Source: a virus (Duplodnaviria > Heunggongvirae > Uroviricota > Caudoviricetes). Taken from it: a DNA stretch of 26,776 nt. Location: positions 64,001 through 90,776 of the IMG/VR virus record IMGVR_UViG_3300037258_000549. The stretch is one strand, 5' to 3'. Numbering within the stretch: the stretch's first letter is position 1; every line of letters begins with the position of its first letter. The notes below the pieces were generated by a model, which saw only the letters and a program-made list of their open reading frames with translations, was not told where the DNA came from and did no database searches. Below, piece by piece: positions 2,890 through 26,427 of the stretch. A program made the position numbers and the translations under genes.

Positions 2890-3141
2890 CTAGCACCTGT
2901 TCTCCAGTGCCTGATTATGAGCGCGCACAGCTTCCGCAGCCAGCGCCGGCGTCTTGAAGACCGCAATCTCAAAGTCGTACTTGTAGGACGCTGGTTCATT
3001 AAGCGCCGCGTAGACGTTGCACGGTTCCTGGTGCCCCTGCCGCCAGGGCAGTTCACACAGCTTCGCCGCGGCGGCCTGCAATGAGCCGTACGCGCGCTGT
3101 AGGTTAACGCGGGCGACTGACAGAGCGGTAGCATCCATCAC
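2890..3141 (-). CDS. Small phage hypothetical protein
   Basis: 83 aa; start overlaps the glycosyltransferase stop (GTGATG). The WRQG...VY...IAVFKTPALAAEAVRAHN pattern resembles small actinophage proteins. Confidence 0.65.
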   Translation of the reverse strand: MMDATALSVARVNLQRAYGSLQAAAAKLCELPWRQGHQEPCNVYAALNEPASYKYDFEIAVFKTPALAAEAVRAHNQALENRC

Positions 3142-4222
3142 GAGGTGAGGCTCTCCAAGGCTCGTAGCAAGCGCTTAGCGTTGTTAGCAAAAGTTCTATC
3201 AGCAATCGCAGCCTGCGCCAGCCGACCCGCTTCTTCGCGTTTATCACTGTTTTGCAACCACCAGCGAAGCTGCTCGGACGCGTCTTCGGGAGAAGTGAAC
3301 GTGGGCAACATGGACAGCACCCGGTCGCCTTCTTCCCGTTGATCCCTAAGGAAGGGCAGGCGGCAAGCGGCCATCTCCACCTCACGCGGCCCCATGGCGA
3401 CGGCGACGTCCCCGGCGTGCGTGTCCTCGGCCTCGCGCCGGTAGAAGTTGATGCCCATCTTCGTCTGGCGGTACAGCTCCGCCGTTTCGGTGTTATCTAC
3501 GCAGTCCGCGTCGGTCAGCCCGCTGCCGATGTACGGCACCAGCGGGGATGCCTCGGGGAGCTTACCCCACTCGTTCCCGGCGATCAGCACGTCGATATCG
3601 CTCAGGTCCAGCGCCTCGAAGAAGTCGATCCGGGACTTGAACGCGGTGCCGATGAACGTCAAGTCGATCAACTTAGCGGACGGCGGCCCGGTCCGCGGGT
3701 GGTGCACGGCCGGGCGGTAGCAGTGCGGGACGTACAGCGCCGGCGTGCCCTGCTGGTCGTAAAGAGGCAGGTTAACCGGGTCATTCAGCAGGCACAGGTC
3801 GGCGAACTGCGCGCGCAGCAGCTGAATATCCTCTTGATAGGGCGATTCCGTATTCAGCATGACGATTTTGTGCCCGCGCTTGCGGATGACTTCCATCAGC
3901 CCGGCGGTAGCAAAAAACCCGCTGACAAAAACTACCACACTTGGCCAAAACGTATAAAGCGCATGGGAGATCCCTTGCATAGCAAGGGTGAACGCGCCCT
4001 CCTGGGTCAGTGCCTGCTTGACGATCGGGAGGTCATACTCGTCTTTAGTCTGGGTGTCCATCAGGGCACGACTGTAAAAGACAAGTCGTAAAAGCCGATC
4101 ATTGAAGTTAAACGAGGCAACTTCTACTCCAGTTTCCCGGAGTCCCTCTTCCCAGCCTTTATAAACATCGTGAACTGAAAAATCGGGCGTAAAGGCCCCG
4201 GGTGAACCAACAAGATCCGCAC
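3138..4222 (-). CDS. CgeB-like (Glyco_trans_1_2) glycosyltransferase, frameshifted near its 5' end
   Basis: The body has LTFIGTAF..R, MGINFYR, MGPREVEMAAC and QLRWWL...REEAG...RTFANNAKRLL. A natural N-terminus MRILLVHPGP (GTG at 4222, SD GGAAGGGG) is in a different frame from DFSVHDVY... The ORF-track start at 4370 overlaps the HNH gene and is probably false. Confidence 0.75.
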
Positions 4223-4335: not shown

Positions 4336-4917
4336 ATGACTGATCCTACAGAACGCTGGCGCCCTGTCAAAAACTTCGAAGGTTTCTACGAGGTTAGCAA
4401 CCTTGGCCGGGTACGGAGCGTTGATCGTACAGTAACCTCCCGTAACCGCTGGGGGCCGATAGAAAAGCACCTGCGCGGCAAGATTCTCTCTCAGGCAACA
4501 GGCAGTTACGGTTATCTAGTGGTCACCATGTCTCGCGACGGCAGGGAACGGCCTTACCGGGTGCATCTGCTTGTCGGGGAAGCTTTCCTTGGACCGCGCC
4601 CGCCCGGACACGATATCCGGCACGGTCCGAGAGGGCGCCAGGCCAACGCAGCGGCAGATCTCTGTTACGGGACGCGGGCGGAAAACGAGCAGGACAAGAT
4701 TCGCGATGGTACATTCCGACACGGTGGCGACGGCCGGGCCGGCGAGGCTGCGAACCACGTTAAGCTGACGTGGGCCATCGCCCGGGAGATCCGGCGCAGG
4801 CGCGCGGCTGGGGAACGGCCTAGTGCTCTAGCTCGGGAGTTTAATACTACTCCTTCAACGGTCTACTACATAGCTAGTAACCGGCAGTGGAAAGCAGAAC
4901 ATGATCCCCAGGGTTAG
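4336..4917 (+). CDS. NUMOD4-HNH homing endonuclease with C-terminal HTH-like domain
   Basis: ERWRPVKNFEGFYEVSNLGRVRS (NUMOD4), VHLLVGEAFLG...IRH...LCYGTRAENEQD (HNH), then IRRRRAAGERPSALAREF. Confidence 0.9.
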   Translation: MTDPTERWRPVKNFEGFYEVSNLGRVRSVDRTVTSRNRWGPIEKHLRGKILSQATGSYGYLVVTMSRDGRERPYRVHLLVGEAFLGPRPPGHDIRHGPRGRQANAAADLCYGTRAENEQDKIRDGTFRHGGDGRAGEAANHVKLTWAIAREIRRRRAAGERPSALAREFNTTPSTVYYIASNRQWKAEHDPQG

Positions 4918-4935: not shown

Positions 4936-4989
4936 TAGACGCCAGCATACGTTAAGCAGTAAGATGGAAGTCCGCCTGACCAGCGACAC
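4936..4989 (+). promoter_or_regulatory. Conserved 30-nt element, copy 2; putative promoter reading into array 1
   Basis: TAGACG-N18-TAAGAT followed by GGAAGTCCGCCTGACCAGCGACAC; 27/30 identical to 175-204 (-). Confidence 0.5.
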
Positions 4990-6262
4990 GCACCGTACCG
5001 ACGAGCCCATCCGCATCGCACCGGCCCATCCCGACGAGCCTACCCGCTTCGGTTCTGGCCATACCGACGAACCCAGCCGTTCCCGGACAGACCGCCCCGC
5101 ACCGACTACCCCTTCCTTCCCCGGTCACCCCCCGCCGACGCACCAGACCGTATCCCTCCTTTCCGCCTCAGGCCGACGAGCCACCCCGTCACGATTCAAG
5201 CTACGCCGACCACCCTGACCAGCTCACACCGACGAGTCATCCCATACCGGTTCGTCCCACGCCGACCACCCGACGCAACCCGCCCCGCCCCATGCCGACG
5301 AGCCATCCCATGCCCAGCCCCACCCAGCCCCACCGACGGACCTCACCAATCCCCACCTGACCCCGCCAAGCCACGCTGACGCATCAGCTCATACCTGCCC
5401 AGCCCGACCCGACGACCCGAACCGCGTCATGCCCGCCCGAGCCACCCTGACGAGCCACCCCATCCCGCTCCTTTCCGCATCGACAAGCTGGCCCACTACC
5501 CGAGCCATTACGTCTCCACCCGCGCCGACATGCCACCCCATCCCATACCGGCCCTGCCCAGGTGACTATCCGTCCCAACACCTCCCGCTCCCGCCCAGGC
5601 TGACGCACCAGGCCAATTCACGTCACCCCGGCCCTCGCTGACATGCCTGCCCCATCCCACACCGGCCCTGCTCAAGCCGACGAGCCGCATCGTACCTCGA
5701 CGAGCCATGCCATGCCCGTCCTCCCCCTGCCGACTACCCGAGCCATTACGTCCCGACTCCACCCCTGTCGACTACCCGAGCCATTACGTCCCGACTCCAC
5801 CCCTGCCGACTACCCGAGCCATTACATCCCGACTCCACCCCTGTCGACTACCCGAGCCATTACGTCCCGACTCCACCCCTGCCGACTACCCGAGCCATTA
5901 CATCCCGACTCCATCCGCGCCGACATGCCTACCCATCCCACACCGGCCCTGCTCAAGCCGACGAGCCGCATCGTACCCAGCCGCCCCTGCCCGCTTTGAC
6001 GACCCACGCCCAGCCAACCCCACCCACGCCGACTAGCCACCTCTTCTCTTACCAGCCCTGTTCGTGCCGACAAGCCATGCCTAGCCGCTCCCTGCCGACT
6101 ACCCAGCCCCGCCCTACCCGACCCTGCGCAGCCCAAGCCGACTACCCACGCCGACGTGCCATCCCATCCCCTGCCGCTACTTCCCATCCCGACGACCCAC
6201 GCTAACCCTGCCCGTCCCGGTCCGACTACCCGTCTCCATCCCTCCCGTCCCGCGCCGACTAG
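4981..6262 (+). repeat. Array 1: degenerate (NNNCC)n-GAC repeat array, C-rich on +
   Basis: Splitting at CCGAC/CTGAC/TCGAC gives units of 33, 33, 38, 33, 38, 33, 23, 33, ... 38, 43, 33, 38, 33 nt, e.g. gagcc catcc gcatc gcacc ggccc atccc gac. Roughly 35 units; no convincing protein in any frame. Confidence 0.9.
5730..5919 (+). repeat. Near-perfect 38-bp x5 tandem repeat inside array 1
   Basis: (C/T)CGACTACCCGAGCCATTAC(G/A)TCCCGACTCCACCCCTG starting at 5730, 5768, 5806, 5844 and 5882; the fifth copy diverges at its end. Confidence 0.95.
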
Positions 6263-9097: not shown

Positions 9098-9360
9098 CTG
9101 TCCGGCAGCTGCTCAACCTGGCGGCGGCGACGGTGATGCAGGGCATGAACGCGGACCAGGTCCAGGCGTTCGAGGAGGAAATCGGCATGCAGCCCGACCC
9201 GGTGAAAGAGGCGCAGGCGGCGCTGCGGGCTTATCAGCAGGCGGCCGGCATCGTGGTCGAAAACCCGGACGCGCCGGTGGCTCCCGATGCCAAGTCGGTG
9301 GCGGCGGCGCAAGACGAGGAGGTCAAGGGCTCGTACCTGGGCGGGGCACGCCGTGGCTGA
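8495..9360 (+). CDS. Frameshift-extended chaperone (gpGT-like), about 288 aa via a -1 frameshift
   Basis: The -1 frame is open from about 8935 to 9360 and reads PYEAARWLLAWSARNAARLDGEFLRRTGQGIETLTVRQLLNLA...; no obvious start/SD before the protein-like stretch. Candidate slip site CGC-CCT-ACG at 8993-9001. Confidence 0.6.
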
Positions 9361-12700: not shown

Positions 12701-15407
12701 CACCCTGCTGGCATCCGGGCTGAATGCCGACGCGGCGAAGACCAAGTTCATTGACTACGCCACTTCGCTCGGCCTGGGTACCGCAGCGGCCGGCGGCCTG
12801 TGGAACGCGCTGAGTAAGCAGCTGCTCGACCAGGCCTCGACGAAGGCGGGCGAAACCGAAACCCAGTTCATCCATCTGGCCGCCCAGCTGGGGCTCACCA
12901 CCACCCAGGCGGAGGACATGTGGACCATGCTGGGCAAGCAGCAGCTCGACACCACCGCCAGCAAGGCACTGGCCGCTAAAAACCAGTTTTACGCGCTGGC
13001 CGAGCAGTTCAACCTCACGTCAACGCAGATAAGCGACCTGTGGACGTTCTTCTCCAAGCAGCTGCTGGACCAGACGACGCTGAAGGCGGGCGAAACCAAG
13101 ACCGGGTTCTTCAACCTGGCCAGCCAGCTGGGCATCACCGGGACCCAGGCGCAGAACCTGTGGACAACGCTGTCGCACCAGCTGCTCGACCAGGCGGCGA
13201 CCAAGGCGGGCGAGACCAAGGGGGAGTTCGACAAGCTGGCCACGTCGATGAACGTCAGCACCACCTGGGCCGATAACTTGTGGAACTCGCTGCACAAGCT
13301 GCCCGCGAAAGTCGGCACGGAATACACCATCACTGGGCACGGGACCGGCCAGGTTTCGGCGTCTGAGAATATCCTGGGCGAGCAAGTCAAGACGATCGGG
13401 AACCTGATCTTCGTGGCGGGCGGCGGGAAGATTCCCGGCCACGGGTCGGGCGACACCGTGCACGCGATGCTTACCCCCGGTGAAGTGGTGGTGCCGAAAG
13501 GCATGGTGGCGGCAGGCGCCGTCGATCACCTGAAAGGCAAGCTGCCCGGGTTCGCCAGCGGCGCGTTCATCGGCCCCGGGGCCAGTTTGCCGGGTGCCAG
13601 CGCGGCCCAGGGGCTGGCGGCCGGCAGCAGTACCACGTTCCTCAAGGACGCCACCAATGCGGGCGCGCCGGCCCTGATGGCCAAGTTCCTGGCCGACACC
13701 GCCGCCGCGGTGACCGCCCAGCAGGTAGCGGCAGCAGCGATCGGGGCTACCGCGGCGGCCGGTCCCGGGGGAGGAGCCCCGGCCGCGAACGCGGCACTGG
13801 CTAAGCGGCTGTACCCGGCCTGGTCGGGCGGCTCAGCCTGGAATGCCTGGAATGCACTAGAGCTTTCAGAAGCCGGCTGGAATCAGTTCGCCACCAACCC
13901 CAGTTCGGGAGCCTACGGAATTCCGCAGGCATTGCCACCGACAAAGATGCCCTTTGCCGCGCAGGCAGCCGGCGGTTCTAATCCGACCGCGCAAATCAAC
14001 TGGATGGTAGATTACATATTGTCAACGTACGGCAGCCCGGAGGCGGCTGAAGCGCACGAGCAATGTGTACCGCTAACCGCGGAAATTCTCACGCGACGCG
14101 GCTGGCTGACTTACGATCAGATCCGCGCGGGTGACGAAACAATCGGATTTAACCCGGTATCCGGGCGTAGCGAGTGGACAACGGTTGAGCAGACGCACGT
14201 TTATGAGGACGCCCCGCTTGTTCGGCTTACCAATAAGACGTGGGCGGCAACTTGCACGCCGCAGCACCGCTGGGTGGCGAAGCACTGGTACCAGAACCCG
14301 TCGAGGGTCGCCGATGAGTTTGTCGAGGCGGGGCGCATCACCTCACGGCACGCGCTCCGCGTCGCCGCTGAAGCTGATACCGGAGGCGGTCCGGCGATCA
14401 GCGAGCGCGAGGCCGAACTGCTCGGGTGGGTCCTCGGTGACGGATCTGTGGCTTACCCGAAGCGACGACCTACCGACTCAGGAACGTCTCCGTCCATCCG
14501 GCTGTACCAAGCCAAGCCCGAGCACGTCGCAGCGATCGATGAGCTGATTGAAGGGCTGATGTTCAACCGAATGGTCCGCGTGATGAATAAGCCCGACGGC
14601 AGGCCGGGATTGCCCTTGGTGACCTGGCAGTTTACCTTTGGCTACTCGGCCGAGCTGCTGAAGCGCAGCGGGTACGACCATAAGAACCCGGTGCCGTTCG
14701 TACTGTCCTTGTCGCCGGAGCAGCGGGAGGCGTTCATGCGCGGCGTTTTCAGCGCCGAAGGCAGTTACGCCGGAACCGGTGAAGGCTTTGCTGAGCGGGG
14801 GTACCACGGGTACCCGCGTACGAAGGTCTATGCTCAGAATGACGGCCCGCAGCAAGATGCGATCACCCTCGGTGTTTACCTGTCGGGTCACCGTCCGGGC
14901 ATCTCGGAGTTGGACCATCGGGGCCGGAAAATCGGGCGCTGGACAGTCAGTACCACTGGTGCTGTTATCCGGGAGACGAAGCCGTCTATCGGCGGGGAGA
15001 GCGTTAAGCGCGAGGACGCCGGGCGCGGGCCGGCCTGGTGTCCTACTACGGGACTTGGTAGCTGGACCATGCGACAGGGCCGCCAGGTCATGCTTACCGG
15101 AAATTCTTATCATTGGTATAAGCAGGGCGGAAAGGTCCGGCTGCCTAAGAGTAGCTCCGCGCGCCGGTATGACAGCGGCGGCTGGCTGCCGACCGGGGCG
15201 AGCGTCGCGGTTAACAACACCGGGTCGCCGGAACGGGTGACGCCGGGCGGCGGGAGCGGCAAGCTAAGCCCGGACGCGCAGGCGATCGTCGCGGCCCTGC
15301 AAGAGAACACCGCTGCCGTTCAGGGGCAGGGCACGAGCTTCAGCCGGGCGCTGAATACGGCAAGCAGCGCGGCGGCCTTCAGAGGATCGTATTCAAATCG
15401 CAGATAA
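9765..15407 (+). CDS. Tape measure protein with C-terminal lytic transglycosylase domain and intein
   Basis: Long Ala-rich helical and hydrophobic ORF, Trp-anchored repeats, GDTVHAMLTPGE motif and SLT-like domain. The frame extends 30 codons upstream of ATG 9855 to ATT 9765, which follows GGAGGTG by 7 nt. Confidence 0.9.
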   Translation: MPITLGDAWINIAPQDNAFRTKLLTLVKTAMTGIDVNVPLSADPAKLDAAVAAAAAKVAGLRQALSGLQINADATALTAKISGLQAQAVKLANAMQHMDLDVDIQAAADKILAITAEIKVLQSELLDLKMDADTTALMTRLTVAEAELNAVTKARDILINVDESAALNRLATLKAVLSTLQQSIAEIHLDVNDTAGLAKLTAFQVQVDAMTKKINSLTVDVNIAPVVAQLLALQAAVDAFKGSSVEAATAAGLFNDSIRAGLPVVDGFSLSLRNGGLNLGNLTGHVQLFAGALTGLLPTFVASASGFHIVADAAVEIIATLGPALIALGAFGASAVDTVDEIYNHFVNLDKVSDELNTTLYPLTGAFSAMNKAAQPQVYVLLGEGLKIISANAGVLATVAQQAGGFIDQLGARITNAVTSGDGFNIFVKNAANDLLGWGNNIGDIFGILGNVLKVMPGYAQIILNMTGTVLQLVEAFTGSGVGQAIIGFGLAFHGALLYIGLLSTAASALISKVLPLLATGIETVAKGFAAIGAESAAGAMAGFSVAAEDAATLPWGWITLAAAGIAVLVYDLLNAKTAAQQFADAIQKTITAVKLSDLGSTITSDIHNYATALQEATAQTAQLQAASAHVQLVDAGKSTQQVVTYSAATYASMQNVADYAAALKLAQNDQTIYNANLDMAAEKLGGTKAALAALTGAGITSTQMLTTSKSQMAENIIEAQAYNEAIKAVTNGTGQEAAALNALSGPEQYLGDMLKNIESITAAQDKLITVVTESESAFDTFALGTQTLGTDMAGTGAKVTDTLGHISVQSSGAASAIGGLTNADLNLNQAFYDQITNAQKVIDALEQQETSAKNMSAATATLAQQMLPFAQNNNAARASIVAMINDAIGPGTVSLNSLNGWVAKNATTMQGFQNIVNGATIKAGQLANVLQGDLNPMMAASIIAADGGQKAFDKFATSIQSGDTSSTGFQKSAEQVITTLLASGLNADAAKTKFIDYATSLGLGTAAAGGLWNALSKQLLDQASTKAGETETQFIHLAAQLGLTTTQAEDMWTMLGKQQLDTTASKALAAKNQFYALAEQFNLTSTQISDLWTFFSKQLLDQTTLKAGETKTGFFNLASQLGITGTQAQNLWTTLSHQLLDQAATKAGETKGEFDKLATSMNVSTTWADNLWNSLHKLPAKVGTEYTITGHGTGQVSASENILGEQVKTIGNLIFVAGGGKIPGHGSGDTVHAMLTPGEVVVPKGMVAAGAVDHLKGKLPGFASGAFIGPGASLPGASAAQGLAAGSSTTFLKDATNAGAPALMAKFLADTAAAVTAQQVAAAAIGATAAAGPGGGAPAANAALAKRLYPAWSGGSAWNAWNALELSEAGWNQFATNPSSGAYGIPQALPPTKMPFAAQAAGGSNPTAQINWMVDYILSTYGSPEAAEAHEQCVPLTAEILTRRGWLTYDQIRAGDETIGFNPVSGRSEWTTVEQTHVYEDAPLVRLTNKTWAATCTPQHRWVAKHWYQNPSRVADEFVEAGRITSRHALRVAAEADTGGGPAISEREAELLGWVLGDGSVAYPKRRPTDSGTSPSIRLYQAKPEHVAAIDELIEGLMFNRMVRVMNKPDGRPGLPLVTWQFTFGYSAELLKRSGYDHKNPVPFVLSLSPEQREAFMRGVFSAEGSYAGTGEGFAERGYHGYPRTKVYAQNDGPQQDAITLGVYLSGHRPGISELDHRGRKIGRWTVSTTGAVIRETKPSIGGESVKREDAGRGPAWCPTTGLGSWTMRQGRQVMLTGNSYHWYKQGGKVRLPKSSSARRYDSGGWLPTGASVAVNNTGSPERVTPGGGSGKLSPDAQAIVAALQENTAAVQGQGTSFSRALNTASSAAAFRGSYSNRR
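12798..13300 (+). repeat. 40-aa (120-nt) tape-measure repeats
   Basis: Trp codons at 12801, 12921, 13041, 13161 and 13281; unit LW..LSKQLLDQ...KAGET...F..LA.QLG.T.TQA. Confidence 0.9.
13790..15120 (+). other. SLT/lysozyme-like peptidoglycan hydrolase domain of the TMP, split by the intein
   Basis: EAGWNQFATNPSSGAYGIPQALP...NPTAQINWMVDYI.STYGSP...HEQ, then the intein, then SYHWY. Confidence 0.8.
14064..15104 (+). mobile_element. Intein (347 aa) with LAGLIDADG-type homing endonuclease
   Basis: Block A CVPLTAEILTRRGW, block B CTPQHRW, endonuclease motifs LLGWVLGDGS and AFMRGVFSAEGS, C-terminal WCPTTGLGSWTMRQ...LTGN, followed by Ser (+1 nucleophile). Confidence 0.93.
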
Positions 15408-19345: not shown

Positions 19346-19385
19346 GATGGCGTGACCGGGCTGGTCTTACCCTAGCGGGTGCGCC

Positions 19386-19721
19386 ATGACGGCCCCGCGG
19401 CTAGACCTGGGTGCCGATCACTGGCTTGAGTACGTTAGCTGGGCGCCGGACCGGGCACTCAACCCGCAGTACGCGGGCTTGCCGGACGTTGAACGGTGGG
19501 GCGCGGTCGTTGGCCACCCGCTCCGGCCGGGTGATGAGCAGTGTGCCTGGCGCGGCGCGTGCACCGGCAGTATCACCTTTGACGGGCTGGCCCAGCGGCA
19601 ACTGAGTGACGGGCCGTTCTGGACGGTTGAGGCGTGGGAGCCGTTGACGCTCTCCCCGTCATTGCTCTGTCATTGCCAGGATCACGGCTTCATCCGCTCC
19701 GGGCAGTGGGTGAACAGCTGA
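19386..19721 (+). CDS. Cys/His protein resembling DUF6527
   Basis: C-terminal WEPLTLSPSLLCHCQDHGFIRSGQW; stop overlaps the next start (TGATG). Family assignment is from memory of the motif. Confidence 0.5.
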   Translation: MTAPRLDLGADHWLEYVSWAPDRALNPQYAGLPDVERWGAVVGHPLRPGDEQCAWRGACTGSITFDGLAQRQLSDGPFWTVEAWEPLTLSPSLLCHCQDHGFIRSGQWVNS

Positions 19722-20860
19722 TGGCGTTGCTGCATAACTCCGCGCAGATCGTCTCATGGACACCGTCGATGACTGACCCGCGCTGGCTCGGTCAGATTGG
19801 CCACGTGAACGGGCTGAAGTACTCCTGGACGCTGCCGGGCGGCCCGGACCAGCTGACCTGCAACCTGATGGTGTCGGCCAGCACCCGGACCCCGGCGATC
19901 GACCCGGGGCGGATCGTCCAGCTGTACCAGGGCGCCGGGGTTATCTGGGAGGGCGTGCTGAGCGAGCCCGCGCCGACCGATACGGCTGGCTGGACGCTGA
20001 CCGCGGTCGGGGCGGGCAATTACGGCACCAATTTCGCCGCGACCTACCCCGGTACCTGGCCGACCGGGCTGCCGGATAGCGCGATTAATGCCGCCATCAC
20101 GCGGGGCCTGCGCTGGGTTAACCCGGGTGTCGGCACCCCGACGGGCATCTGGCTCGGCCAGGAAGTTGACTCCGGGGCGCAGACCGTCACCGACTTGCTG
20201 AACCTGAACTGCACCTACGGCGGGCTGACCTGGTCGGTGACCGTCACCCCGGCGGGCAACATCTTGTCGGTGTTCACGCTGCCCACCACGGTGAACCGGC
20301 TGCTGCTAGTGCGCCAGCCGGCCCCGCGCACGCTGGGCGGGGACATCAACGTCGTCTGGCTGCGGTACGAGTCGACGGCAGACGACGCCACCAGCGGGGC
20401 TGCCGCGGTGTACTCGACGACCTCGGCCACGGTGCCCGCCTCGATCGCGCTGCACGGCGAGCGGGAAGCCTACCTGGACCTGTCCAGTGCCGGGGTGATG
20501 ACGACCGCCGCGGCCCAGGCGGTCGGCAACGCGCTGCTGCAGCGCTACCAGCGGGCCAGCTTCGCCGGGCCGTTCGCCGCCGGGCCGGGGGACCTGATGA
20601 CTACCGGCGGGCAGCCGACGGACCTGGGCCACAACCACGTCGGCGCGGTCGCCCAGCTGGTGCTGACGGACTACGCCTACGGCGGTGAGGTGGTACTCGG
20701 GCCGGTTACCTTCCTGATCGGCTCCTACGCCTACGACGACGACACGCAAACCGCGACCGTGACCCCGTTTCAGTACCTGGACACCAGCTTCAGCAGCCTG
20801 CTGTCGGTGGCGTCCACCATGCTGCCGCAGCCCGCAGCGGTCGCGGCCCCCACTTCGTAA
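19721..20860 (+). CDS. Baseplate hub / Tal-like minor tail protein
   Basis: ATG 19721 coupled to the upstream stop. LKYSWTLPGGPDQLTC...GRIVQLY.G...WEG motif and position after Dit. Confidence 0.65.
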   Translation: MALLHNSAQIVSWTPSMTDPRWLGQIGHVNGLKYSWTLPGGPDQLTCNLMVSASTRTPAIDPGRIVQLYQGAGVIWEGVLSEPAPTDTAGWTLTAVGAGNYGTNFAATYPGTWPTGLPDSAINAAITRGLRWVNPGVGTPTGIWLGQEVDSGAQTVTDLLNLNCTYGGLTWSVTVTPAGNILSVFTLPTTVNRLLLVRQPAPRTLGGDINVVWLRYESTADDATSGAAAVYSTTSATVPASIALHGEREAYLDLSSAGVMTTAAAQAVGNALLQRYQRASFAGPFAAGPGDLMTTGGQPTDLGHNHVGAVAQLVLTDYAYGGEVVLGPVTFLIGSYAYDDDTQTATVTPFQYLDTSFSSLLSVASTMLPQPAAVAAPTS

Positions 20861-20885: not shown

Positions 20886-21665
20886 ATGCGCTGGTTCAGC
20901 ACCCTGACGGCGGCGCTGCTGGCGGAGGCGGCCGGGCACTTCCTGTCGCTCGGCTGGGGCTTCCTGACGCTCATCCTGGCGTTCGTGGTGGTCGCCGTCC
21001 GGATGAGCACTCTGGTAGCGGCGACCAACTCGAAGGCGTACGCCACCGAGGCGCGGCTCAACGCGCACGTGACCGCGACGGCTCCGGCGGTCAACTTCGT
21101 GGCGAACGGCGGCACCGTCGGCGGCACCGTGTTCGTATCCGGCGATCATCACGTCACCGGGAACTCGGCGGTCAGCGGTACCCAGACGATCACCGGGCAG
21201 CTCAACGGGTCCACCATCTCGATTTCCGCCGGGATGACCGACTACGGGCACACCACGCACGGCAGCCTCAGCGTTGACAGCAACGTGACGGTCGGCGGCA
21301 CTCACACGGTCACCGGGCAGATCAACGGGTCCACCGTGTCGATTTCCGCCGGGATGACTGACTACGGGCACACCACGCACGGCAACGCCAGCATCGACAG
21401 CGACCTGGCGGTCAGCGGGACGCTCAACGGCGGCGGCGGCAGCACGGTGGAATCAACCGGGATTCACTCCTCCGGCACCATCCTGGCCGACGGCCAGATC
21501 AACGCGACCGGCAACATGAGCGCAGGCAACTTCGGCGGGCCGTACCAGGGCGGTCAGGGGGCGGTTACCGTTCCTAGCTTGACTAGTCCTAGTACGAACG
21601 AGGTACAGCTTTTCAACGGAGTCAACGGGTGCATTTCCCGGCTGAACTCGTCGGGCCTCATCTAG
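20886..21665 (+). CDS. Hydrophobic N-terminus plus beta-helix-like spike/fibre protein
   Basis: Strong SD (GAAGGAG). Hydrophobic N-terminal segment, V-x-G-rich repeats, a 40-aa duplication at 21186 and 21306, and C-terminal CISRLNSSGLI resembling fibre trimerisation ends. Confidence 0.6.
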   Translation: MRWFSTLTAALLAEAAGHFLSLGWGFLTLILAFVVVAVRMSTLVAATNSKAYATEARLNAHVTATAPAVNFVANGGTVGGTVFVSGDHHVTGNSAVSGTQTITGQLNGSTISISAGMTDYGHTTHGSLSVDSNVTVGGTHTVTGQINGSTVSISAGMTDYGHTTHGNASIDSDLAVSGTLNGGGGSTVESTGIHSSGTILADGQINATGNMSAGNFGGPYQGGQGAVTVPSLTSPSTNEVQLFNGVNGCISRLNSSGLI

Positions 21666-23883: not shown

Positions 23884-24311
23884 GAGGGCAGGGATCAATC
23901 GTGGACGTCCCGCGGGCGCTCAACCCGGTCACCAACCCGGCCGGCTACCTGGCAGCAGCGGGGGCGGTCGCTGCCGCGGTCACCATGCTGGTTAATGCCG
24001 TAAACAATCACGGCCTGATCGACCCGACGGTGATCGTTGCCGCGGTCGGCGCCGTCGGGGCGCTGCTCACCCGGCAGGCGGTGACCCCGGTAGCCGACCC
24101 GAAAAACAGTGCCGGCGTACCGCTGGTCCCGTCCGTGGCACCCGGCCCGCCGAGCGCGGTAATGCCTGCTGAGCCCGTGAGGCCGCCGTCCTGGCCGTCT
24201 TCCGTTCAACTGGTGCTGCCGGAGAAAACGGAGAAAACGGCTGGCCCGGCCACCGTCCCGGTTACCACCCTCCCGCCGCCGCCGGTACCACCGGAGGTGC
24301 CCGCGCCGTGA
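23880..24311 (+). CDS. Holin-like protein with Pro-rich tail
   Basis: Two hydrophobic segments followed by TRQAVTPV, an R-x2-VTP motif common in actinophage holins. The start may be the GTG at 23901. Confidence 0.6.
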   Translation: MRGQGSIVDVPRALNPVTNPAGYLAAAGAVAAAVTMLVNAVNNHGLIDPTVIVAAVGAVGALLTRQAVTPVADPKNSAGVPLVPSVAPGPPSAVMPAEPVRPPSWPSSVQLVLPEKTEKTAGPATVPVTTLPPPPVPPEVPAP

Positions 24312-25117
24312 GTTACATCCACCAGCCGCAGCCCGGCGTGGTCATCGCCGTGGTCGGCAGCGGCCTGGCCGGCTACCTGGTCGGCGTCGGGCAAGCTATC
24401 GCCGGGAAGCCGTCGCTGGGCACCCATGTCGTGGGAGTCACCCACCAGGACGCCAAAGGCCGGTGGATGGGCATTGAAGGGCGTCCCGGCGGCGTCGGAC
24501 TGGTCGACTGCACGCCGTACCTGGCTGACTCCCGGGCTCGCAGCAACTACCTGCAGCCTAAGCCGGACGATCACGGGCAGCTGGCCGCGTTCCTGGCCGG
24601 GGCCGCCAAGTCCCTCGGCATCGGTTACGACTGGGCAGGCATCGCCGGGGATATCGCGGACACGGTGGCACCGGACCTGTCGGCGGACATCGACCACCTG
24701 TGGCGCTGGCCAACATACAAGGGCCAGCTGCCCGGCCACGTCGTCTGCAGTTCACTATTCGCGGCTCTTTACGACCTGCCTCAAGTGGGCTGGCAACACC
24801 CTGACCTGGGGAAAGAACGGATGTGCCTGCCCGAAGCATGGTGGAACTGGTGCGACGGGGAACTCTGGGCTTCTTTAGGTAGACTGGGTGATACACGCTG
24901 CATCAGGGCAGCTAGGCAAACCCTCCCCCTCCGGCCGACTGTCCAGGCCTGGCCCAAACCGCTCCGCCCACGCCGACTAACCACGTCAGTCCCCAACCCC
25001 CCCGCCCCATGTCGACCTGCCAGACCTGGTCCCAACGGCCCGCTCCACCTCCGCCCACCCCGACTGGCCAACCCGGCCCATCCCCCTCCCGCCCTGACCT
25101 GCCAGACCCGGTCCTAA
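24308..25117 (+). CDS. Permuted NlpC/P60 (YiiX/YebB-like) papain-fold enzyme; ORF reads on into array 2
   Basis: His precedes Cys: THVVGV...IEGRPGGV...GIGYDW...VVCSSLFAALY. The domain ends near 24875; the remainder is array-derived Pro-rich sequence. Confidence 0.7.
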   Translation: MSYIHQPQPGVVIAVVGSGLAGYLVGVGQAIAGKPSLGTHVVGVTHQDAKGRWMGIEGRPGGVGLVDCTPYLADSRARSNYLQPKPDDHGQLAAFLAGAAKSLGIGYDWAGIAGDIADTVAPDLSADIDHLWRWPTYKGQLPGHVVCSSLFAALYDLPQVGWQHPDLGKERMCLPEAWWNWCDGELWASLGRLGDTRCIRAARQTLPLRPTVQAWPKPLRPRRLTTSVPNPPAPCRPARPGPNGPLHLRPPRLANPAHPPPALTCQTRS

Positions 25118-25628
25118 CGGCCCGCTTCGTTCCTGCCTAGCCCAGCCGACTATTCAAGCCATCCCGTCCCGCTCCGTGCCGACTACTCCAGCCAGGCCAT
25201 CCCGAGCCCGGCCCGGCCGACTAACCTAACCACCACCCGCCCAGCCCGTGCCGACTACACGCACCATGCCAATCCGGTCCCGCCCGTACTGACCTGCCCG
25301 ACCAAAACTGCCCTCCCCGCACCGACCAGCCACTCCGCGGCACGCCACCCCGAGTCCGCCCGTCCCTAGCCGACTTGCCAGCACATCCCTGCCCGCGCTG
25401 ACGGTCCGATCCCTGCCCTGCCATCCCCTGCCGACAGACCATCCCTGCCCGGTCCAGGCCTTACCGACGCCCCGCGCCCTCACGCTCCGGGTCAACCCGC
25501 TCCGGTCCGGCCCTCACCGACATACCTAGCCTTACCTGCGCTGACGGTCCGATCCCTGCCCTGCCTAGCCGCTCCGACTGACCAGCCCCTACCGCCACGA
25601 CCCCTTCCGACTAGCCAGCTCCCGCCGA
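24930..25628 (+). repeat. Array 2: degenerate (NNNCC)n-GAC repeat array, same grammar and strand as array 1
   Basis: Units of 38, 39, 48, 34, 52, 33, 38, 34, 38, 33, 48, 28, 33, 33, 53, 24, 33, 33 and 18 nt, e.g. tattc aagcc atccc gtccc gctcc gtgcc gac. Confidence 0.9.
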
Positions 25629-25648
25629 CCCGGCCCCGGGGAAAGGAG

Positions 25649-25713
25649 AAGCCCCGCTCTCCCTGCGCAGCCCCTCATGAACGAGGCAGCCGGGAAGAGC
25701 GGGGCTTTTACTT
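25649..25713. terminator. Probable bidirectional intrinsic terminator with a large structured loop
   Basis: AAGCCCCGCTCT (25649-25660) pairs with AGAGCGGGGCTT (25696-25707), then TTACTTGTT on + and a pyrimidine run on -. It lies between array 2 and convergent genes. Confidence 0.7.
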
Positions 25714-25971: not shown

Positions 25972-26427
25972 CTAAGCGATGTTGAAGAATGCGCTGGGCC
26001 GCCAGTACGCGTTCCACTGGTGGTAACCCACCCGCGTCCCGGTGTTCAGTGCGCCGAACGTCCGGTCATGACCACGCGCCACGATCTCCACATGGCCCGT
26101 ACCAAAAAATGCGAGCGACCCGGCGACCGGGTGCCGGGTTGGCACTAGCAGGCCGTCTGCCACCCCGGTAGACAGCATCTCGGCGGTGTCGCGGGGCATG
26201 TTCACGCCCAGCTGGTGACTGGCCCACGCCACGAGCCCACTACAGTCAAAAACAGTCGGGCCGTCCGCGCCGTACACGTACCAGTCACCGGCCCGGGTCT
26301 GCGCCTCGGCGAGGACGCGGGCACCGAGTGATCCGGTTGCCGCGTGCGCCTGCCCGGTCAATAGGCCGGTCAGGGCAGCGAGAGCGGCCGTAACAGTAAG
26401 TACCAGGGTGAGCGCCCGGCGCCTCAT
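25972..26427 (-). CDS. Secreted NlpC/P60 peptidoglycan endopeptidase
   Basis: Signal peptide MRRRALTLVL...QAHA; YVYGADGPTVFDCSGL (catalytic Cys) and FFGTGHVEI (His). Confidence 0.92.
   Translation of the reverse strand: MRRRALTLVLTVTAALAALTGLLTGQAHAATGSLGARVLAEAQTRAGDWYVYGADGPTVFDCSGLVAWASHQLGVNMPRDTAEMLSTGVADGLLVPTRHPVAGSLAFFGTGHVEIVARGHDRTFGALNTGTRVGYHQWNAYWRPSAFFNIA

Follow-up and report, generated by a model that had tools for sequence, protein, structure and literature searches.

The question addressed here was what is encoded by a C-rich, regularly patterned tract in the genome of an uncultured tailed phage. The window, i.e. the whole stretch of DNA that was analysed (26,776 nt), is the final 26.8 kb of a single 90,776-bp contig, and its gene content (major tail protein, tape measure with a transglycosylase domain, HNH endonuclease and NlpC/P60 peptidase) marks a tailed phage. 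The only public run listed with the contig is a soil metagenome (DNA). A preliminary description of this DNA had divided the tract (array 2) into about 19 units, with the CC phase, GAC reset and strand of another tract in the window (array 1), and had proposed that it forms a self-contained transcription unit for a repetitive non-coding RNA between a -10-like box and a terminator. The features of the locus are as follows (window coordinates).

24308-25117, plus strand: ORF upstream of array 2, with a frame that continues without a stop past the putative promoter and the hairpin and ~190 nt into the array.
24880-24885, plus strand: -10-like hexamer TAGACT, preceded by GG (24878-24885 reads directly as GGTAGACT).
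24897-24912, plus strand: leader hairpin obtained by folding, with a 5-bp stem (GCTGC/GCAGC) and the loop ATCAGG.
24913-24922, plus strand: conserved linker TAGGCAAACC between the leader hairpin and the first pentamers, defined by leader alignments.
24917-25639, plus strand: array 2, a tract of CC-NNN pentamers (131 in a Viterbi parse), proposed below to be a multi-guide RNA tract.
25395-25422 and 25538-25565, plus strand: the two copies of an internal 28-nt exact duplicate.
25648-25712, both strands: GC-rich hairpin terminator common to array 2 (plus strand, followed by TTTTAC) and to convergent minus-strand genes.
4981-6262, plus strand: array 1 (array H of the genome), with 239 pentamers and 35 GAC resets in the same grammar and on the same strand as array 2.

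Array 2 contains 51% C and 20% G, and the GC skew is -0.41 to -0.44 across 24.9-25.6 kb of the window. In the Viterbi parse, 106 of the 131 pentamers start with an exact CC; C occupies the first position in 84% and the second position in 96% of them, and the third to fifth positions are near free. The tract therefore consists of tandem pentamers with a fixed part and hypervariable bases. When 1000 first-order Markov resamples were used as the null, the lag-5 autocorrelation of CC in array 2 (94) exceeded both their mean (51.7 ± 10.7) and their maximum (89). The parse includes 17 GAC resets (14 CCGAC, 2 CTGAC and 1 TCGAC), each followed by a 3-nt insertion, and a motif count gives 22 YYGAC sites, composed of 17 CCGAC and 5 variant GAC. 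Of the 21 spacings between these anchors, 13 are 3 mod 5 and 7 are 4 mod 5. Composition, skew, parse and periodicity agree on the tract lying where it had been placed, and the count of about 19 units was a fair one, given 22 GAC anchors and 24 parsed segments (ca. 22 to 24 units, each of 1 to 10 pentamers). Folding of the tract is weaker than that of its own shuffles (z +2.46), as expected if the RNA is meant to remain single-stranded.

Both arrays of the window could be parsed with one grammar on the plus strand, and the longest exact block that array 2 shares with array 1 is 14 nt (17 nt with any of its eight sister arrays in the genome). The view that the rule rather than the sequence is conserved between the two arrays is thus borne out, and the long identity that had been named as counter-evidence, pointing to a simple recent duplication, is absent. 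The 28-nt exact duplicate indicates duplication of a unit inside array 2. In array 1, a 38/76-nt block at 5724-5962 (plus strand) is present in 5.3 tandem copies that are 93% identical, a recent amplification within the pentamers. From these repeats, pentamer arrays seem to grow through unit duplication.

Several known kinds of sequence were compared with the tract and rejected. Array 2 is not coding, since stops occur in every frame and the period is 5 nt; the CCGAC spacings fall into all classes modulo 3. It is not a CRISPR array, as a repeat finder detected no near-identical direct repeats of ~23-50 nt in 24.9-25.7 kb, where only a 2-5-nt anchor recurs. Searches of the array 2 region against Rfam and for tRNAs returned nothing relevant. 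The tract resembles the ToxI arrays of type III toxin-antitoxin systems in its promoter-to-terminator layout, in units of ~33-38 nt and in the connection of such arrays with phages, in which or against which they act. ToxI repeats are near-identical (36-nt tandem repeats) and are paired with an endoribonuclease toxin gene. In array 2, unlike ToxI, only the 5-nt anchor pattern is conserved, the units differ in both sequence and length with a longest internal duplicate of 28 nt, and the partner protein, described below, has a Cas7 fold; no toxin family was found among the neighbours of the array. An antitoxin RNA of the ToxI type was rejected on these grounds.

The sequences framing array 2 were examined on both sides. 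The -10-like hexamer and the GCTGC/GCAGC hairpin were present as previously described. A generic sigma-70 scan did not call the hexamer, and its support comes from its recurrence before nine of nine arrays of the genome, not from a match to the consensus. In the inferred RNA, ~4-5 nt would separate the 5′ end from the leader hairpin. The linker behind this hairpin has an invariant TA, and CAAACC is shared by arrays A, D and I and by relatives. Downstream, the terminator that had been noted by eye folds on the plus strand with -50.1 kcal/mol (z -3.1) and on the minus strand with -52.9 kcal/mol (z -4.05).

Homologues of the upstream ORF (58-64% identical) stop near the equivalent of 24870, and an array downstream of the homologue was found in none of 10 metagenome homologues. 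Likewise, no array occupies the equivalent site in 3 viral and 10 metagenome loci with homologues of the flanking genes. Since the homologues end at ~24870 with no array behind them, array 2 looks like a lineage-specific insertion by sequence comparison, and the frame that stays open to 25117 is regarded as a side effect of this insertion. The upstream ORF has lost its normal stop relative to the homologues and, if translated, would carry an extra Pro/Arg-rich tail of ~80 aa.

Arrays 1 and 2 belong to a set of nine, which occupy the following contig positions.

1-1360: array, cut at the contig start (array A).
3001-3880: array.
13261-13840: array.
19361-19940: array.
52341-52900: array.
53941-54300: array.
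56681-57080: array.
68981-70320: array 1.
88901-89680: array 2.

The nine arrays comprise 1247 pentamers in 6.9 kb, i.e. ~7.6% of the contig, and no overlap was found between the contig ends. Over all 1247 pentamers, the first position is C in 78% and the second in 93%, with the third to fifth positions near free. Genome-wide, CC recurs every 5 nt; the next CC after a CCGAC comes at 8 nt, so the CCGAC-CCGAC distances are 8+5k nt (33, 38, 28, 43 nt and so on when anchored on CCGAC). Distant clades (L003, L024 and others) differ in that their CCGACs are mostly spaced by 34, 29 or 39 nt (4 mod 5) instead of 33, 38 or 28 nt, and the extra base per reset implies that the punctuation rule differs among clades. 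An HNH endonuclease gene with NUMOD4 and HTH motifs (window 4336-4917, plus strand) ends ~10 nt upstream of array 1's -10 box, and its homologue has the equivalent place in the relative L007.

The leaders of the arrays recur along with the grammar. On the C-rich strand, a hexamer of the TANNNT type (TATACT, TATAAT, TAGACT, TAGACC, TATGAT or TATCAT) is located 6-20 nt before the leader hairpin in nine of nine arrays, and the bases between hexamer and hairpin vary. The canonical 5-bp hairpin, with the loop A(Y)C(A/G)AGG followed by TA and often by CAAACC, is found in six of the nine arrays, at 7-20 nt from the hexamer, and the remaining three have variant leaders. An alignment of 12 paralogous and orthologous leaders (six of this genome and six of close relatives) was evaluated for covariation: 93% of the cells pair, compensatory changes occur in three of the five pairs, and the covariation score of 0.388 (0.168 in shuffles) was reached by none of 500 shuffles. 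Two hairpin cells are U.G, which pair on the C-rich strand only. A covariance model of the leader (R1) matched the close relatives L007, L028/L041 and L040 and was restricted to close relatives. In the relative L030 (~9220-9295), the leader stem is GCCAC/GTGGC and a second GC-rich hairpin lies within the loop; judged from this sequence, the leader accepts loop insertions. The framework of the transcription unit proposed in the preliminary description, namely the hexamer (9/9), the hairpin (6/9), the terminator and a non-coding, weakly folding tract, thus stood, while its transcription is something that we infer from this framework.

A candidate protein partner of the arrays is encoded near the other end of the contig, outside the window.

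Contig 1463-2173: partner gene with a mostly helical product, upstream of the vipr-like ORF (L036:1463-2173).
Contig 2258-2980: Vipr-like ORF of 240 aa, between arrays A and B.

The 240-aa ORF was modelled with AF2 (pLDDT 85), and all of the best 50 PDB matches of the model are backbone chains of the Cas7 type (Csm3, Cmr/Cmr4 and type VII Cas7). In a search of AFDB clusters, rank 3 was X1U2U4 (E 4e-8; TM by hit 0.73), although the TM by query is moderate (0.56) and the sequence identity is 12%. X1U2U4 is named as the Vipr reference in the available text of a recent preprint (bioRxiv 10.64898/2026.10.21.760802). The ORF has at least 197 homologues, gave no significant Pfam match, and shows a conserved C-terminal glycine-rich loop (GxGASRSQGxG) in the family alignment. 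As far as the model indicates, contig 2258-2980 thus provides, on the same element as the arrays, a Vipr protein with the minimal RAMP fold and a G-loop. The partner gene is conserved upstream of vipr in more than 40 loci. With no PDB match for its fold at E <= 0.001, its product is not assigned to vap1-6, and it gave no Pfam family either; it may be vap-like or correspond to a Cas11-like small subunit.

The association between arrays and protein was evaluated in both directions. An IMG/VR scan with a 33-nt pattern of the grammar yielded 35 loci, ~29 of which have the same kind of arrays, and a homologue of the 240-aa ORF is present in 17 of these 35 loci, which were chosen by the DNA pattern alone. 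Conversely, CC-pentamer arrays lie within 6 kb in 31 of 55 loci chosen by the protein alone. Arrays and vipr gene thus co-occur among genomes. Near Vipr homologues, 39 of 44 arrays are C-rich on the sense strand of vipr, and arrays of distant loci follow the partner gene or vipr so closely that only a few bases separate them from its stop codon. Relatives with 72-81% identity in flanking genes carry arrays at the same intergenic sites with contents that cannot be aligned, a guide-like pattern of evolution. In BLASTN, the array 2 region matched none of 50,697 records of cultured phages.

These properties fit VIPR, an RNA-guided system of gene silencing that is related to CRISPR and was first reported in 2026 (bioRxiv 10.64898/2026.04.26.720920, 10.64898/2026.04.26.720927). 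According to the available text of the preprints, the components of VIPR are a minimal RAMP (Cas7-like) protein, Vipr, and vrRNAs, and binding silences rival phages and satellites (bioRxiv 10.64898/2026.04.26.720920, 10.64898/2026.04.26.720927, 10.64898/2026.10.15.759431). The same text describes a vrRNA as tandem pentamers, canonically GGY/NN, with one Vipr protomer per repeat, and the free bases of the Vipr-vrRNA complex as reading double-stranded DNA with every third base skipped (bioRxiv 10.64898/2026.04.26.720920, 10.64898/2026.04.26.720927). Type II VIPR, composed of Vipr, vrRNA and vap, is described there for Escherichia phage SUSP1 and a Pseudomonas fulva prophage (bioRxiv 10.64898/2026.04.26.720920, 10.64898/2026.04.26.720927, 10.64898/2026.10.15.759431). 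As in those two systems, the elements studied here are phage-borne, comprise a lone protein of RAMP/Cas7 fold, a second small conserved gene and non-coding RNA genes in which tandem pentamers combine a fixed part with free positions, and have array contents that turn over fast; the conserved leader hairpin may be the counterpart of the structured element that caps the tract there. Class 1 CRISPR backbone filaments (Csm3, Cmr4 and Cas7 on crRNA) share the protein fold and, as an idea, one protomer per fixed RNA step with bases flipped at regular intervals, but their step is 6 nt; here it is 5 nt, with no CRISPR repeats, spacers or other cas genes.

Differences from the published VIPR systems, as far as their available text goes, concern the anchor, the structured element, the punctuation and the scale. 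In place of GGY/NN, the anchor here is CC (YC), followed by three near-free bases in a C-rich RNA. Array 2 does not follow canonical GGY/NN on either strand, its complement reading GG, then G>C>A>T, then NN. The text of the first VIPR preprint admits "a related consensus" besides GGY in the definition, and its methods list the non-GGY variants NNNGG, YNNNG and NNNNG (bioRxiv 10.64898/2026.04.26.720920); a non-GGY anchor therefore makes a variant and does not exclude the array from VIPR. Non-canonical arrays were also obtained from the entropy periodicity of a language model, with the motifs GAC/NN, CAC/NN, WGT/NN and TGH/NN in the text available and ~10 repeats each (bioRxiv 10.64898/2026.10.21.760802). 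Like these and the NNNGG type, the present arrays combine a 5-nt period and a non-GGY fixed part with an adjoining Vipr-like fold matched to X1U2U4, whereas the CC anchor, the CCGAC punctuation and kilobase-long arrays go unmentioned in the available text of that preprint. Published vrRNAs of ~100 nt each have a 3′ pseudoknot tail, in contrast to one hairpin per array at the inferred 5′ end here, and guides are here separated by CCGAC and a 3-nt phase shift. SUSP1 has four vrRNAs beside vipr in the text available, as against nine dispersed arrays with ~1250 pentamers and putative promoters of their own. Relative to the available text of the 2026 papers, the CC anchor, the CCGAC punctuation, the 5′ hairpin and kilobase arrays spread over a genome are new and the kind itself is known; the CC clade may be listed in the figures or tables of those papers, perhaps as NNNGG of the other strand.

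Array 2 is most probably the vrRNA, i.e. guide-RNA, array of a VIPR system, since its pentamer grammar goes together with a genome-encoded Cas7-fold protein that matches X1U2U4 and co-occurs with such arrays. On the analogy of SUSP1, array 2 would be transcribed from its own promoter (-10 at 24880-24885) into a C-rich RNA of ~820 nt that opens with the small capping hairpin and ends at the terminator at ~25712. Vipr protomers would line up along this RNA, one per pentamer, gripping the CC anchor and presenting the free bases to double-stranded DNA. The CCGAC and 3-nt resets could be guide boundaries, serving as processing sites or as breaks in the filament, and would divide array 2 into ~20 guides, each of 5 to 10 pentamers. 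Binding of Vipr and guide would then silence genes of rival mobile elements. Transcription, strand, RNA ends, processing at CCGAC and targets of array 2 are all inferred, on the analogy of SUSP1. Several observations stand against VIPR: the anchor is not GGY, and the G-rich strand reads GG plus mostly a purine; arrays A and B are antisense to vipr in the same genome, and array 2 and vipr lie 86 kb apart on the contig, whose ends do not overlap; there is one hairpin per array, the fold match is moderate at 12% identity, and no target emerged under the decoding rules tried.

If array 2 belongs to VIPR, the C-rich strand is likely to be the RNA, given the 39 of 44 orientation, the abutment on stop codons, the hexamer at promoter distance and the U.G pairs of the hairpin. 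The converse, that the functional RNA is the G-rich strand, a vrRNA of the NNNGG type whose hairpin together with the "-10 box" forms a 3′ tail, agrees with the published vrRNAs, which in the text available are G-anchored, have a conserved structured 3′ tail and include NNNGG among their variants (bioRxiv 10.64898/2026.04.26.720920). Arrays A and B are, moreover, G-rich on the coding strand of vipr in their own genome, and the terminator behind array 2 folds on the minus strand too (z -4.05). Nevertheless, the sense strand of vipr is the C-rich one for 39 of 44 arrays near Vipr homologues, many of them abutting an upstream stop codon, and the TANNNT hexamer keeps promoter distance before the hairpin in nine of nine arrays with variable bases in between. 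On the G-rich strand, the two U.G pairs become C.A mismatches, and a minus-strand RNA of array 2 would start directly past a strong terminator, where there is no room for a promoter. We regard this strand assignment as unlikely.

Two further explanations dispense with Vipr. The RNA could be a C-rich, G-poor, unstructured decoy that soaks up a reader of YC or poly-C, e.g. Rho or an RNase. The primary sites of Rho bind YC dinucleotides, in line with which array 2 is 51% C, 20% G and weakly folded. A sponge needs no strict 5-nt phase with 3-nt resets, though, and this phase agrees with the rule of one Vipr protomer per pentamer given in the available VIPR text; arrays and the Cas7-fold gene also co-occur among phages. 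The decoy was demoted because of the Cas7-fold partner and the VIPR papers, and appears very improbable. Alternatively, the tract might act as DNA, as a G-quadruplex or i-motif or as a binding array for a protein that recognises CCGAC. The opposite strand, (GGNNN)n, could by its sequence form two-tetrad quadruplexes, and CCGAC is regularly spaced. Against this, the arrays are framed by a promoter-like box, a covarying hairpin and terminators, their orientation tracks the vipr gene among loci, which a symmetric property of DNA would not require, and quadruplexes need no phase held over hundreds of bases. A role as DNA is scarcely to be expected.

The guides predicted by the VIPR explanation were compared with candidate targets. 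Contiguous decoding, in which the CC anchors were removed, gave only chance-level matches of 14-19 nt in BLAST against the contig and ~95 loci. In gapped decoding of 1.07 Mb of phage DNA by 15 rules (p3p4, p4p5, p3_p5 or p3p4p5 with a DNA period of 2 to 5), no excess over shuffled guides was seen except for the colinear 5-nt rules, which re-find the arrays. As an NNx pattern, the guide of 10 pentamers at 25472-25524 had no match in IMG/VR and one match in 596 Gb of genomes, located in an Ala/Gly-rich stretch of a gammaproteobacterial MAG; this match was taken as chance since the skipped bases agree at only 1 of 10 positions. The idea that the free triplets are copies of sense codons of targets was rejected, as in-frame stops are not depleted (49 of 1446; ~1.9% expected by our own estimate from position frequencies).

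A more specific proposal, which we advance tentatively and at somewhat less than even chances, is a Vipr clade that uses CC on a C-rich RNA as the mirror of GGY and stores ~190 guides in long, CCGAC-punctuated transcripts with a 5′ hairpin handle and nine promoters. If true, RAMP filaments could be built on another base-recognition chemistry and possibly with another decoding rule, with three free bases per step; neither recognition through CC nor decoding by three free bases is described in the available text of the 2026 VIPR papers. The RNA-guided DNA binders of the VIPR class, whose code is non-contiguous, have been known for only months, and a CC-anchored clade would broaden the recognition chemistry known for minimal Cas7-like proteins, as would the separation of guides by a CCGAC phase shift or the allotment of ~7.6% of a phage genome to ~190 guides. 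In addition, such a clade would show multiplexed guide storage as it occurs in nature and provide a case in which the setting of guide boundaries can be tested. Annotation gains an explanation for kilobases of "non-coding" DNA with a strong skew, which many uncultured soil phages of high GC content carry.

Two other features of the window were recorded. The minus strand at 25972-26427, convergent on array 2, encodes an NlpC/P60 (CHAP-like) peptidase whose N-terminal segment resembles a signal sequence; the enzyme probably acts in lysis or on the cell wall. Within a tail-fibre-like gene (20886-21665), a 120-nt tandem repeat is present in 2.1 copies with 86% identity at 21169-21418 (plus strand).
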